Of a stretch of DNA of 598 bases, positions 1 through 598 are shown one piece after another (the first letter of the stretch is position 1; each line of letters starts with the position of its first letter). The stretch lies in assembly GCF_003334385.1 (NCBI RefSeq), contig NZ_QOWN01000161.1. The stretch is one strand, 5' to 3'. Under the pieces are notes generated by a model. The model was not told the DNA's origin. It worked only from the letters and a program-made list of their open reading frames with translations, and searched no databases. The position numbers and the translations under genes are program-made. Source of the DNA: Escherichia coli (GTDB lineage Bacteria > Pseudomonadota > Gammaproteobacteria > Enterobacterales > Enterobacteriaceae).

Positions 1-132
1 ATGTCAGACAAACTCATAACGCCGGCAAAGGTCCTGTGTGTGATTGTCGGTATTTCATTTTCACTAATGCTGGTTGCTCTTTTTCTGTCCCTCGCCTGGG
101 TGATGTTGTCTTCGTCGGGGCTGCTGGGGTGA
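1..132 (+). CDS. Small hydrophobic single-helix membrane peptide (43 aa if the ATG at 1 is the true start); function unknown; may be the 3' end of a longer gene that starts upstream of the window
   Basis: Frame 1 is open from 1 to the TGA at 130..132. Translation: MSDKLITPAKVLCVIVGISFSLMLVALFLSLAWVMLSSSGLLG. A short polar N-terminus is followed by about 26 uninterrupted hydrophobic residues. T falls at codon position 2 in this frame, as expected for a membrane helix, whereas the overlapping frame-3 reading gives a non-membrane-like CDCRYFIFTNAGCSF. Its stop overlaps the next candidate start (GTGA at 129..132). Absent from the ORF track, presumably for length. Confidence 0.4.
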   Translation: MSDKLITPAKVLCVIVGISFSLMLVALFLSLAWVMLSSSGLLG

Positions 133-251
133 CAGTGACTGATGACATCAGCAGAGCGCTGGCTTTTGCTATTAAGTGGGTGGCTGTTGGTATTGCTGTG
201 TCTCCGATGCTGTATGGGCTGGCAAAACTGGTCATTGCGCTGAAATCGTGA
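129..251 (+). CDS. Small membrane peptide (about 40 aa), paralogue of the downstream 263..349 micro-ORF; function unknown
   Basis: Frame 3. Translation from GTG 129: (M)TVTDDISRALAFAIKWVAVGIAVSPMLYGLAKLVIALKS, ending at TGA 249..251. The start is uncertain: GTG 129 (overlapping the upstream stop as GTGA) or GTG 135. The ORF track extends this frame back to GTG 36, but that extension overlaps the better frame-1 membrane helix. The core RALAFAIKWVAVGIAV aligns with [16 protein letters not shown] in the next ORF, with mostly synonymous or conservative codon differences. Confidence 0.5.
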   Translation: MTVTDDISRALAFAIKWVAVGIAVSPMLYGLAKLVIALKS

Positions 252-262
252 ACTTTAAAAAG

Positions 263-349
263 ATGAGTGCTGAACTTATTCGGGCAATGGCATTTGCCAT
301 TCGTATTGTGGCCATTGCTGTTCTGGTCTGGGCAATTCGTTGGTGGTGA
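263..349 (+). CDS. Micro-ORF encoding a 28-aa hydrophobic peptide, paralogue of 129..251; function unknown
   Basis: Frame 2, ATG 263 to TGA 347..349. Translation: [28 protein letters not shown]. One predicted helix with Arg residues and a C-terminal aromatic RWW. Protein-level similarity to 129..251 with silent nucleotide divergence. Its stop is 1 nt before the Rz ATG (TGA-T-ATG). Weakness: the sequence just upstream of the ATG is A-rich (AAAAAG) with no clear GGAGG-type Shine-Dalgarno. Confidence 0.45.
341..345 (+). promoter_or_regulatory. Shine-Dalgarno-like ribosome-binding site for Rz
   Basis: GGTGG at 341..345, followed by a 5-nt spacer (TGATA) and the ATG at 351. It lies inside the 3' end of the upstream micro-ORF, consistent with translational coupling. 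Confidence 0.5.
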
Positions 350-350
350 T

Positions 351-598
351 ATGAACCGTGTTCTGTGTGTGGTGATTATTGTCATGCTGGTAGCCTGTGG
401 TGTGCTTAGTCTGGGGCTGAATCATTACCGTGATAACGCCATAACCTACAAAGAGCAGCGCGATAAAAAAGTCAGTGAGCTGGAGCAGGCAAATGCAACC
501 ATTACTGATATGCAGCAGCGCCAGCGTGATGTTGCTGCACTTGATGCCAGATACTCGAGGGAATTAGCCGATGCGAGAGCTGAAAATGAAACTCTGCG
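351..598 (+). CDS. Rz: Rz-type i-spanin (inner-membrane spanin subunit), lambda Rz family; 5' portion only, truncated by the window's 3' edge
   Basis: ATG at 351 opens a frame that stays open to the window end. Translation: [82 protein letters not shown]. This is an N-terminal hydrophobic signal-anchor followed by a charged, Q/A/R/D-rich helical region. From memory of lambda Rz (..[44 protein letters not shown]..), the [11 protein letters not shown] and [10 protein letters not shown] blocks are near-identical. A Shine-Dalgarno-like GGTGG sits at 341..345, 5 nt before the ATG. Confidence 0.9.
557..560 (+). promoter_or_regulatory. Putative ribosome-binding site for the embedded Rz1 start
   Basis: GAGG at 557..560, about 10 nt upstream of the +1-frame ATG at 571, inside the Rz coding sequence. 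Confidence 0.35.
571..598 (+). CDS. Rz1: Rz1-type o-spanin (outer-membrane lipoprotein spanin subunit); only the first 9 codons are in the window, embedded in the +1 frame of Rz
   Basis: ATG at 571 is in the +1 frame relative to Rz and lies 220 nt into Rz, which matches my recollection of where lambda Rz1 begins inside Rz. Translation is MRELKMKLC..., compared with recalled lambda Rz1 MLKLKMMLC.... A second in-frame ATG at 586 is an alternative start. GAGG at 557..560 is a plausible ribosome-binding site. The lipobox and mature protein are beyond the window. Confidence 0.6.

Follow-up and report, generated by a model that had tools for sequence, protein, structure and literature searches.

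Three small ORFs upstream of Rz

The window, by which we mean the whole 598-nt stretch of DNA analysed, carries three small open reading frames followed by the 5' part of the spanin gene Rz, with the start of Rz1 embedded in it. Its features are as follows.

1..132, plus strand: ORF1, ATG start, 43 aa, one long hydrophobic helix at residues ~11-36
125..137, plus strand: ORF1-ORF2 junction, GGGGTGACAGTG; the stop TGA of ORF1 (130-132) overlaps GTG129 (GGGGTGA)
GTG129 or GTG135 to 251, plus strand: ORF2, 40 or 38 aa, GRAVY 1.2
ATG263-349 (28 aa) or GTG248-349 (33 aa), plus strand: ORF3, GRAVY 1.48
338..353, plus strand: ORF3-Rz junction, CGT TGG TGG TGA (R-W-W-stop), then T and the Rz ATG
351..598, plus strand: 5' part of Rz (i-spanin), first 82 codons, running off the window
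571..598, plus strand: start of Rz1 (o-spanin lipoprotein), embedded in the +1 frame of Rz

The ORF list and re-translation place three tightly packed one-helix ORFs of 43, 38-40, and 28-33 aa in positions 1-350, each consisting of a single hydrophobic stretch and all lying downstream of the endolysin gene R. As a chance control, we generated 3000 dinucleotide-preserving shuffles of 1-350 and searched them for three ORFs in a row, each 28 aa or longer and with a GRAVY of 1.1 or more. None of the 3000 shuffles yielded three qualifying consecutive ORFs, and 110 of 3000 yielded two. An earlier note on this DNA had described three abutting hydrophobic one-helix ORFs upstream of Rz, a description that translation and this control bear out. 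The ORF list likewise agrees with its statement that the upstream 350 nt hold no endolysin-sized frame: none of 150-180 aa was present among all reading frames of 1-350, where the sole long ORF is antisense (123 aa) and has no family match.

ORF1 has a GRAVY of 1.64, reaching 2.87 in its best 19-aa stretch, and in the source record a good Shine-Dalgarno (SD) sequence, AAGGGG, lies 5 nt upstream of it. Within the ORF1-ORF2 junction, a G-rich SD-like run precedes GTG135, whose SD spacing is better than that of GTG129, and translational coupling may operate here. Inspection of the sequence found no canonical slippery heptamer in register, and the idea of a programmed ORF1-ORF2 frameshift was dropped. 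Longer ORF2 calls that overlap ORF1 (71 or 90 aa in phrog_3246; 51 aa from a CTG start at position 96 in RefSeq, WP_042004856.1) were treated as over-extended because no purifying selection is seen in frame +2 where it overlaps ORF1. The stop codon of ORF2 in turn overlaps the in-frame GTG of ORF3 (TCGTGA), and the annotated ATG of ORF3 has a weak SD. A single nucleotide separates the ORF3 stop from the Rz ATG, and GGTGGTGA, within 338..353, also serves as the SD-like element of Rz. This type of junction recurs where another small-ORF family abuts Rz.

The full Rz gene matches phrog_13, 'Rz-like spanin' (E = 1.7e-77), and is annotated as a lysis protein or Rz. The Rz1 translation has a lipobox and a Pro-rich body and is almost the same as the Rz1 annotated in 933W. 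A spanin profile match together with an embedded lipoprotein gene was found solely for the gene at 351-598 onward, and the small ORFs were rejected as spanins; ORF1 shows no significant similarity to the Rz helix (p = 0.065). Direct repeats (D6, D7) had prompted the idea that ORF1 arose by duplication of the 5' end of Rz and survives as a relic. This was also rejected for want of significant similarity, with p = 0.065 at the protein level against this Rz, p = 0.01 against lambda Rz before correction for multiple tests, and p = 0.16 at the DNA level.

Two families of small membrane proteins

We found that ORF1 belongs to phrog_4906 (E = 4.5e-21) and ORF2 to phrog_1115/3246/4493 (E = 6.4e-25), and that ORF3 hits the same PHROGs as ORF2 (E = 3.8e-06). 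All of these families are listed with unknown function, and none is a holin family. In RefSeq, ORF1 is WP_001280935.1, a 'hypothetical protein', and ORF3 is WP_032140280.1, from a subfamily ending in ..IRWW. Neither ORF1 nor the ORF2/3 alignment matched any Pfam entry, holin families included, and searches of the small ORFs against NCBIfam and the PADLOC defence models gave no match. A 4413-aa match in the representative search was an acidic repeat protein and was discarded as spurious. We found no published description of these ORFs in the literature; their sequences are already deposited as hypothetical proteins, and the families themselves are uncharacterised. ORF3 resembles ORF2 with z = 5.4, a score reached by 0 of 2000 shuffles. 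As judged by these comparisons, ORF1-3 derive from two unrelated families, neither of them characterised, with ORF2 and ORF3 as paralogs.

Homologues of ORF1 are 43-44 aa long and restricted to E. coli and Shigella. They were seen in one setting only, immediately 5' of Rz; the loci are of the 933W type, of the PhiR12 type, or divergent. Pooled pN/pS is 0.50 in the ORF1 frame against 0.82 and 1.35 in the other frames, and the variable sites fall 18/14/23 over the three codon positions; constraint on ORF1 is only weak. Several genomes carry a frameshifted ORF1 variant, whose frame stays open up to an ATGA overlap with the Rz ATG. The homologue in 933W, between ant and Rz, is unannotated in its record, and the copy in Sakai Sp5 is ECs_5707. 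Ribosome-profiling supplements for uninduced Sakai cells list nothing at or near the Sp5 homologue, and a literature search for 'ECs_5707' returned no paper.

ORF2 is a 5'-shortened copy of a family of ~60 aa. Its core protein is identical to that of full-length copies, yet the genes differ at 4-8 synonymous sites. A Salmonella homologue (82% identity), which lies between a different holin with an R21-like endolysin and Rz, differs by 20 synonymous and 8 non-synonymous changes (pN/pS 0.15). Across the ORF2 family, variable sites are distributed 14/3/29 by codon position and pN/pS is 0.05-0.27. ORF3 gives a pN/pS of 0.25-0.34 in comparisons with relatives, and the value is 0.08 when full-length relatives are compared with one another; variable sites in its family fall 9/4/19. 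Frames other than the annotated ones gave values of about 0.8-1.4 or more, such that coding-type substitutions occur in the annotated frame only. The short N-terminus of ORF3, 'MS.E/D.IRA..', is repeated in independent members, and the RWW ending is kept even in family members away from Rz. The sole length change seen in the three-ORF arrangement is a one-codon in-frame insertion in ORF3 of one locus (L008); stops or frameshifts in the arrangement were found in 0 loci. ORF2 and ORF3 of the window lack the N-terminal ~22 residues, the SD, and the upstream hairpin of full-length members, and in this truncated form they could be inactive.

Members of the ORF2/ORF3 family are also found at prophage ends, where they follow tail-fibre or DUF4376 genes, and downstream of a major capsid gene. 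The family is accordingly not bound to lysis genes, and a strict lysis role loses weight.

Taken together, the sequence data identify ORF1, ORF2, and ORF3 as genuine genes for single-pass inner-membrane micro-proteins, the membrane insertion itself being predicted. By the same comparisons we regard them as distinct from holin, endolysin, and spanin. A holin identity was rejected on the basis of no profile match, one helix rather than two, and a position downstream of R. ORF2 as a mimic of helix 2 of the holin S was likewise rejected (a borderline similarity with p ~0.005, uncorrected and among more than 20 comparisons; p = 0.12 for the Salmonella pair). An endolysin identity failed as well, with no enzyme-sized ORF bearing a muralytic domain in 1-350 and R located 1.1 kb upstream. 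The small proteins of the E. coli K-12 prophage Qin (YnfQ, YnfR, YnfS, among others) map elsewhere. The earlier note had also raised the idea of the decayed remains of a holin, which is contradicted by the lack of a holin match in Pfam or PHROGs, by the separate recurrent families, and by the coding-type substitutions. Nor do the ORFs look like fragments of one frameshifted holin, the finding that the note had named as counting against its reading: they match separate families that occur singly and in other orders.

The R-Rz interval in related phages and prophages

The window is 100% identical to part of phage PhiR5_1 and to many E. coli prophages. The PhiR5_1 record is a complete phage genome with E. 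coli C as its listed host, and from its deposition as such we infer that its lysis cassette is functional. In the flanks of the 100%-identical records, a 71-aa class II holin S of the PF04971 type lies ~2.8 kb upstream of the window and a 177-aa lysozyme R lies ~1.1 kb upstream of the window start, in the canonical S-R order. R is annotated 'lysozyme' in RefSeq, matches PF00959 in related loci, and has a weakly hydrophobic, SAR-like N-terminal segment. Stx-phage endolysins of this type have been described as SAR endolysins paired with pinholins (PMC8136144). Between R and the window lie a gene for a KilAC antirepressor and another small ORF, the fourth (31 aa), giving the order S (an S21-type class II holin), R, KilAC antirepressor, 31-aa ORF, ORF1, ORF2, ORF3, Rz/Rz1, terminase. 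Intact S and R genes are present upstream of Rz in every related locus that has enough flanking sequence. The three ORFs do not, as the earlier note had supposed, occupy the endolysin slot: the flanking sequence that it called for places S and R upstream, and the apparent lack of an endolysin is an artefact of the short window. What the window covers is the distal part of the late lysis region of a lambdoid phage or prophage of E. coli that is akin to Shiga-toxin phages.

Of 5426 complete E. coli genomes, 581 carry the three-ORF module in its exact form and 1745 carry parts of it. Since the arrangement is at least 99% identical across all 581 carriers, selection on the exact three-ORF arrangement cannot be measured.

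We mapped S, R, and Rz in 81 related loci and found R-Rz spacers of 293-1895 nt in which a small hydrophobic ORF abutting Rz was never absent. Between one and four small membrane-protein ORFs fill these spacers in varying combination, sometimes joined by ant or a methylase gene, and the number, presence, and order of the cassettes differ among otherwise near-identical lysis cassettes. One architecture is a long ORF2 followed by ORF1 (77/80 loci); others are ORF1-ORF2-ORF3, a long ORF3 alone, a 'WKF' ORF alone, and, in 933W and Sakai, ant followed by ORF1. Nearly all architectures place the stop of the final small ORF within 10 nt of the Rz ATG or overlapping it. The exception is L040, which has a DNA methylase gene between the small ORF and Rz; this gene and the antirepressor are the cargo found at the R-Rz junction besides small ORFs. 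We conclude from these comparisons that the R-Rz interval is a recombination hot spot for small-ORF cassettes in this phage group.

No sigma-70-like promoter was predicted on the plus strand inside the module, and a search for promoters and terminators within it gave nothing above shuffle expectation, with short weak hairpins only. In all 15 of 15 full-length ORF2/ORF3-family loci, a hairpin with an A-tract, a GC stem, and a U-tract lies 24-65 nt 5' of the start codon. Its stem carries compensatory changes, and the structure is conserved and terminator-like. Tail-adjacent family copies alone have a downstream terminator as well, so that terminator-like hairpins bracket them. On the minus strand, a -10-like TATACT is invariant in 7 diverged sequences, with a -35-like hexamer 16-18 nt away, and a promoter scan returned a minus-strand -10/-35-like pair at the same place in three tail-adjacent loci. 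The TATACT overlaps conserved Lys-Tyr codons and is degenerate in the two most diverged members. Both the hairpin and the promoter-like pair belong to full-length members only and are absent from the window. Rfam searches covered the locus of the window plus five related loci, R-Rz or tail-adjacent, and turned up only STnc100, located upstream of the holin, and a rimP hit below threshold.

Possible roles and comparison with known systems

The best explanation, to which we would give about an even chance of being right, is that ORF1-3 encode late-expressed accessory inner-membrane peptides, chained into Rz, that tune lysis. Since no promoter of their own was found, the ORFs would be read from the Q-antiterminated late transcript. 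Translation would proceed as a coupled chain (a 2-nt gap, a GTGA overlap, a further GTGA overlap, and a 1-nt gap), and the chained frames would deliver ribosomes to the Rz start. The peptides would insert into the cytoplasmic membrane late in infection, where they may tune the membrane steps of lysis, whether the triggering of the pinholin, the freeing of the membrane-tethered endolysin, or the action of the spanins; the small ORFs would thereby have a role in lysis timing. An undescribed accessory lysis module had been proposed in the earlier note. The module is real, conserved, and variable, but its sequences were already deposited as hypothetical proteins, and one of its families is found elsewhere too. 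We think it unlikely that the R-Rz small ORFs amount to a new class of trans-acting inner-membrane regulators of pinholin/SAR-endolysin/spanin lysis in Stx-type phages, with ORF1 as a dedicated Rz partner and full-length ORF2/ORF3 cassettes bearing an antisense-RNA and terminator 'safety catch'. If it were true, cassette shuffling would tune lysis timing and hence the release of phage and toxin.

Leading the alternatives, and still rather unlikely, is a reading of the ORFs as moron-type cargo unrelated to lysis, that is, mobile cassettes in permissive late-operon gaps that benefit the lysogen or the infected cell by other means, for example through superinfection exclusion at the inner membrane or host membrane-protein modulation. 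The copies that follow tail-fibre/DUF4376 and capsid genes, the hairpins bracketing them, the variation in cassette presence, number, and order between near-identical lysis cassettes, and the insertion of the antirepressor and the L040 methylase at the same junction are all consistent with such cargo. However, ORF1 occurs next to Rz only, the PADLOC defence models found no match, and expression in a lysogen is not expected, because there is no predicted upstream promoter and 24-65 nt separate the terminator hairpin from the start codon. It is decidedly improbable that the ORFs, and especially the truncated ORF2 and ORF3, are functionless recombination leftovers that stay open only so that translation reaches the Rz ribosome-binding site (RBS). 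A spacer frame of this kind should show pN/pS of ~1, whereas the families show 0.05-0.5 with the third codon position dominant; the L008 insertion preserves the frame, the arrangement has no stop or frameshift, and the ORF3 N-terminus recurs in independent members. What speaks for leftovers is the loss of the N-terminal segment, SD, and hairpin from ORF2 and ORF3, the weak SD at the ORF3 ATG, the frameshifted ORF1 variant that remains open into the Rz ATG, and the fact that all architectures but L040 end within 10 nt of Rz.

We consider it very improbable that the ORF2/ORF3 family is a type I toxin, in which an antisense RNA running from the first codons across the RBS to the upstream bidirectional hairpin would silence leaky expression and the window would hold orphan toxin bodies. 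The small, hydrophobic peptides, the hairpin conserved in 15/15 full-length loci with compensatory stem changes, and the invariant minus-strand TATACT with its -35-like partner would suit a toxin. Yet constraint on the Lys-Tyr codons could explain the -10 element, which degenerates in the two most diverged members, and the locus has no Rfam family, no match to known type I toxins, and no sense promoter, with the control element absent from the window. Scarcely credible is the view that these ORFs stand in for an absent endolysin, or that they come from the break-up of a single decayed holin or other larger gene. The sole support for this is the lack of an enzyme-sized ORF in the 598-nt window, and it is refuted by the flanks, which hold intact S and R wherever they extend far enough, as well as by the ORFs' membership of distinct small families, which are met with alone or in a different order, and by the lack of any holin-family match.

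When lambdoid prophages of pathogenic E. coli lyse the host, both phage and Shiga toxin are set free. Textbook accounts give the lysis cassette three functions, holin, endolysin, and spanin; in this very common prophage group, the endolysin-spanin junction is never empty and holds conserved, selected, and uncharacterised membrane micro-proteins. If these ORFs modulate lysis timing or Rz expression, they would constitute an overlooked control layer, and if they have no lysis role, they would be a clean example of small-protein cassettes spreading through late operons.

The locus shares its S, its type of R, Rz/Rz1, gene order, and late operon with the canonical pinholin/SAR-endolysin cassette of phage 21 (S21-R21-Rz/Rz1) and with 933W and Sakai Sp5. 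In lambda-type relatives such as Qin (rrrQ/rzpQ), R overlaps Rz directly with no insert, whereas here up to 1.4 kb is intercalated, made up of four small membrane ORFs and the antirepressor. Lambdoid morons, e.g., HK97 gp15 and lambda bor and lom, are small cargo genes variably present among late genes that are themselves conserved. Small inner-membrane proteins are the products of some of them, and classical morons have their own promoter and a downstream terminator. The small ORFs are like morons in being variably present between conserved R and Rz, but differ in having a hairpin upstream of the first cassette, no predicted promoter, and frames chained into Rz. With the type I toxins Hok, Ldr, Ibs, TisB, and ZorO they share small size, hydrophobicity, and a single helix, and full-length family members have a possible cis-antisense arrangement; unlike such toxins, they have no homology to them, no Rfam antitoxin, and no promoter of their own, and the window copies lack the putative control region.

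Accessory lysis regulators, namely the S107 and S21-71 antiholins, P1 LydB, and Mu gp25, are also small membrane proteins encoded near the endolysin and expressed late. The small ORFs have no sequence relationship to them, matching neither DUF2730 (PF10805) nor any other Pfam family. At 99 aa, Mu gp25, the 'releasin' (DUF2730), combines an N-terminal helix with a cytoplasmic domain of 73 aa, and it acts on SAR endolysins (PMC9239132). By comparison, the ORF-family peptides have 28-60 aa and, as predicted, almost nothing outside the membrane, and the R of this locus is of the SAR type, the kind of endolysin on which Mu releasin acts.

The lysis locus and its small ORFs

Escherichia phage PhiR5_1 (listed host E. 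coli C) and prophages of many E. coli chromosomes match the window at 100% identity. Its first 350 nt, the module that carries the three small ORFs, were found in 581 of 5426 complete genomes (at least 99% identity, at least 80% of length), and fragments of it in 1745 genomes. Using the annotated flanks of identical records together with independent mapping, we determined the gene order as S (class II holin, 71 aa), R (lysozyme, 177 aa), a KilAC-domain antirepressor (231 aa), a hydrophobic 31-aa ORF, ORF1, ORF2, ORF3, the spanin pair Rz/Rz1, and terminase. R is thus present in its ordinary position, 1.1 kb upstream of the window. The earlier note had placed the small ORFs in a vacant endolysin slot; the vacancy appeared because only 598 bases were read, and the trait that made these ORFs look remarkable is not real. 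The weakly hydrophobic N-terminus of R (MNAKIKYGLSAAVLALIAAGASAPE) is typical for signal-anchor-release (SAR) endolysins, and in a survey of Stx phages (n=279) this endolysin type is described as SAR, with pinholins as partners (PMC8136144).

Further elements were seen upstream of the lysis genes in related loci (L-numbers). A tRNA-Ile, tRNA-Arg, tRNA-Arg cluster (L002 240-489) and a SASA-family esterase gene are arranged as in Stx phages, with no stx genes between them in the L002 prophage. In relatives from E. coli and Salmonella (L032 1-143 and L089 2653-2860), the holin gene is preceded by matches to Rfam STnc100 that exceed the gathering score (81.5 and 67.8 bits).

Features of the window
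1-132, plus strand: ORF1, 43 aa
129 or 135 to 251, plus strand: ORF2, GTG start, 40 or 38 aa
263-349, plus strand: ORF3, 28 aa (33 aa with the in-frame GTG 248 as start)
351 to window end, plus strand: Rz, first 82 codons
571, plus strand: start of Rz1, in the +1 frame of Rz

A single hydrophobic stretch dominates each small ORF (GRAVY 1.2-1.6; best 19-residue windows 1.9-2.9). The ORFs are tightly packed: ORF1 ends in a stop that overlaps a GTG of ORF2 (GGGGTGA), ORF2 in one that overlaps a GTG of the ORF3 frame (TCGTGA), and a single base separates the ORF3 stop from the Rz ATG. Three consecutive hydrophobic ORFs appeared in none of 3000 dinucleotide-preserving shuffles of positions 1-350, and on these grounds the earlier description of the three ORFs was accurate. 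Rz1 has the lipobox LVVSAC and a Pro-rich body, and differs very little from the Rz1 annotated in phage 933W.

ORF2 is extended upstream across ORF1 in frame 3 in existing annotations, to 51 aa from a CTG in RefSeq (96-251) and to 71-90 aa by many gene callers (phrog_3246; 36-251). This upstream extension is probably an annotation artefact, as that stretch shows no sign of purifying selection.

Coding evidence and peptide families

All three ORFs are deposited as 'hypothetical protein' (WP_001280935.1, WP_042004856.1, WP_032140280.1). Their PHROG matches (phrog_4906; phrog_1115/3246/4493) are families with no assigned function, and searches of Pfam, NCBIfam and PADLOC returned no match. We found that the coding-type substitution pattern is confined to the annotated frame.

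Variable sites by codon position (first/second/third) and pN/pS in the annotated frame
ORF1 family: 18/14/23; 0.50 pooled
ORF2 family: 14/3/29; 0.05-0.27
ORF3 family: 9/4/19; 0.08-0.34

For ORF1, pN/pS in the two other frames was 0.82 and 1.35, and its replacements are largely hydrophobic-for-hydrophobic. Between window ORF2 and a Salmonella copy, 20 changes are synonymous and 8 non-synonymous.

ORF1 homologues (43-44 aa) were found in E. coli and Shigella only, and those at 65-67% identity still lie directly upstream of Rz. Several genomes (L044-L046, L180, L181) carry a frameshifted variant (..LVALRLDDVVFV..GVRGI) whose frame is open until it overlaps the Rz start in an ATGA. This fits with selection to keep an open, translated frame running to Rz.

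ORF2 and ORF3 align significantly with each other (z = 5.4), and sequence comparison identifies both as shortened paralogues of a 60-aa family. Full-length members consist of a basic N-terminal segment (M-x-KYKRILLRLTMKNGLE-x-x-AP), a conserved core (RA-x-AFAI(K/R)-x-VA) and a hydrophobic helix ending in ..LIIALKS or ..A(I/V)RWW. Window ORF2 lacks the first ~22 codons, with the join to post-ORF1 sequence at ..GTGACAGTGACTGATGAC.., and ORF3 has a short alternative N-terminus, 'MS-x-E/D-x-IRA', that recurs in independent members. The RWW terminus is also kept in members with no Rz downstream, and so is a trait of the protein as well as of the Rz ribosome-binding site.

This is a small family: 1.8 billion representatives yielded 29 clusters of it at 50% identity. 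Salmonella has members at 77-83% identity, and there too the gene lies directly before Rz, preceded by another holin and an R21-like endolysin. More diverged members occupy other places in late operons: behind tail-fibre or DUF4376 genes at prophage ends, behind a major capsid gene, and behind an M15 endolysin, in the last case ahead of a 60-aa lipoprotein gene instead of Rz. A cassette of this kind in phiSTEC1575-Stx2k (L007 2888-3245; also L109, L113) has two holin genes and an M15 peptidase endolysin, then a long ORF3/ORF2-family gene and, 2-8 nt on, the lipoprotein gene (phrog_7528, of unknown function), and its annotation has no Rz-like gene.

The R-Rz junction as a cassette site

We mapped S, R, Rz and small ORFs in 80 viral contigs encoding the same Rz. 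The R-Rz spacer ranges from 293 to 1895 nt and ends, in all loci but L040, with a small ORF whose C-terminal hydrophobic helix abuts Rz. The K-12 Qin prophage differs, in that R and Rz overlap by four bases.

Arrangements between R and Rz
Type A: 'WKF' ORF, ORF1, ORF2, ORF3; the window's type, antirepressor usually absent
Type B: 60-aa long ORF2, then ORF1; 77 of 80 long-form loci
Type C: antirepressor, then ORF1; 933W and Sakai Sp5 (ORF1 is ECs_5707 in Sakai)
Type D: 50-aa long ORF3 alone
Type E: 'WKF' ORF alone
Type F: antirepressor, ORF1, ORF3-like ORF, DNA methylase; L040

In L040 the last gene ahead of Rz encodes a putative 255-aa DNA methyltransferase (spacer 1111-1878, after the ORF3-like gene), which would represent more cargo at this junction. 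The 'WKF' ORFs (..DFSKLIRE.R.M....WKF.L.W...) are a fourth small-ORF family there, found at L001 5903-5998 (2 nt before position 1 of the window) and L009 2554-2648, and last before Rz in L032 and similar loci. They end in ..AIKG, or in ..IRWW when abutting Rz, match phrog_6632 weakly and show a borderline likeness to the ORF2 helix (p ~0.005-0.008).

Outside the window, all 15 full-length loci examined, in any genomic context, have a strong hairpin 24-65 nt upstream of the start codon. It comprises an A-tract, a GC stem and a U-tract (AAAACCCCG..CGGGGTTTT; predicted -18 to -30 kcal/mol), with compensatory changes between loci in the inner stem.

Hairpin examples
L009 2449-2481, ~95 nt after the R stop
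L089 ~3925-3960
L093, L095-L098 and L007

As modeled, the hairpin looks like a bidirectional intrinsic terminator, and it seems to belong to the mobile cassette. No promoter was predicted upstream of the cassettes or within the module. Given this and the little room after the hairpin, only antiterminated late transcription would be expected to reach the cassettes.

Also outside the window, full-length members carry a minus-strand -10-like TATACT within conserved Lys-Tyr codons (codons 3-4), with a -35-like hexamer 16-18 nt off.

Minus-strand -10/-35-like pairs, same place in three tail-adjacent loci
L093 4053-4026, minus strand
L097 3037-3008, minus strand
L098 3050-3023, minus strand

TATACT is invariant in seven diverged sequences, with the equivalent AGTATA in L005, L050, L057 and L089, and degenerate in the two family members that are most distant. 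In combination with the hairpin, the motif could mark a cis-antisense RNA of ~80-110 nt that crosses the ribosome-binding site and stops at the hairpin; its invariance could equally reflect protein constraint on the Lys-Tyr codons.

Proposed role and relation to known systems

The locus, its intact S, R, Rz and Rz1, the ORF structure, families and paralogy, the selection signatures and the cassette shuffling are established. We propose that the ORF1-3 peptides would be made late, from the Q-dependent transcript, in translationally coupled frames that may deliver ribosomes to the Rz start, a role that R itself has where it overlaps Rz. As single-pass peptides inserting into the inner membrane, they would modulate the membrane steps of lysis, namely pinholin triggering, SAR-endolysin release or spanin action. 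ORF1 strictly adjoins Rz, and members of the ORF2 family recur behind three different endolysin types; on both grounds such modulation appears to be the likeliest role. Because the ORF2/ORF3 family occurs beyond lysis cassettes too, a cargo role independent of lysis is still a real contender. The shortening of ORF2 and ORF3 in the window keeps alive the reading of these copies as a relic plus coupling spacer, but the amino-acid conservation of the peptides argues for a function beyond holding a frame open.

Among known systems, a holin identity is ruled out by the single helix, the position downstream of R and the lack of a profile match. The peptides have neither DUF2730 nor a cytoplasmic domain and are not releasins as defined (PMC9239132); spanins were likewise rejected. 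Neither known type I toxins nor Rfam antitoxins matched the peptides or loci searched, and we found no published description of these peptides in the literature searched. Like morons they vary in presence between loci, but they lack the promoter-gene-terminator layout. The sequences are already known and common; the peptides are of the kind of small accessory membrane proteins in phage late operons. What is left is a tidy, testable group of uncharacterised micro-proteins encoded in lysis cassettes of phages of the Shiga-toxin type.
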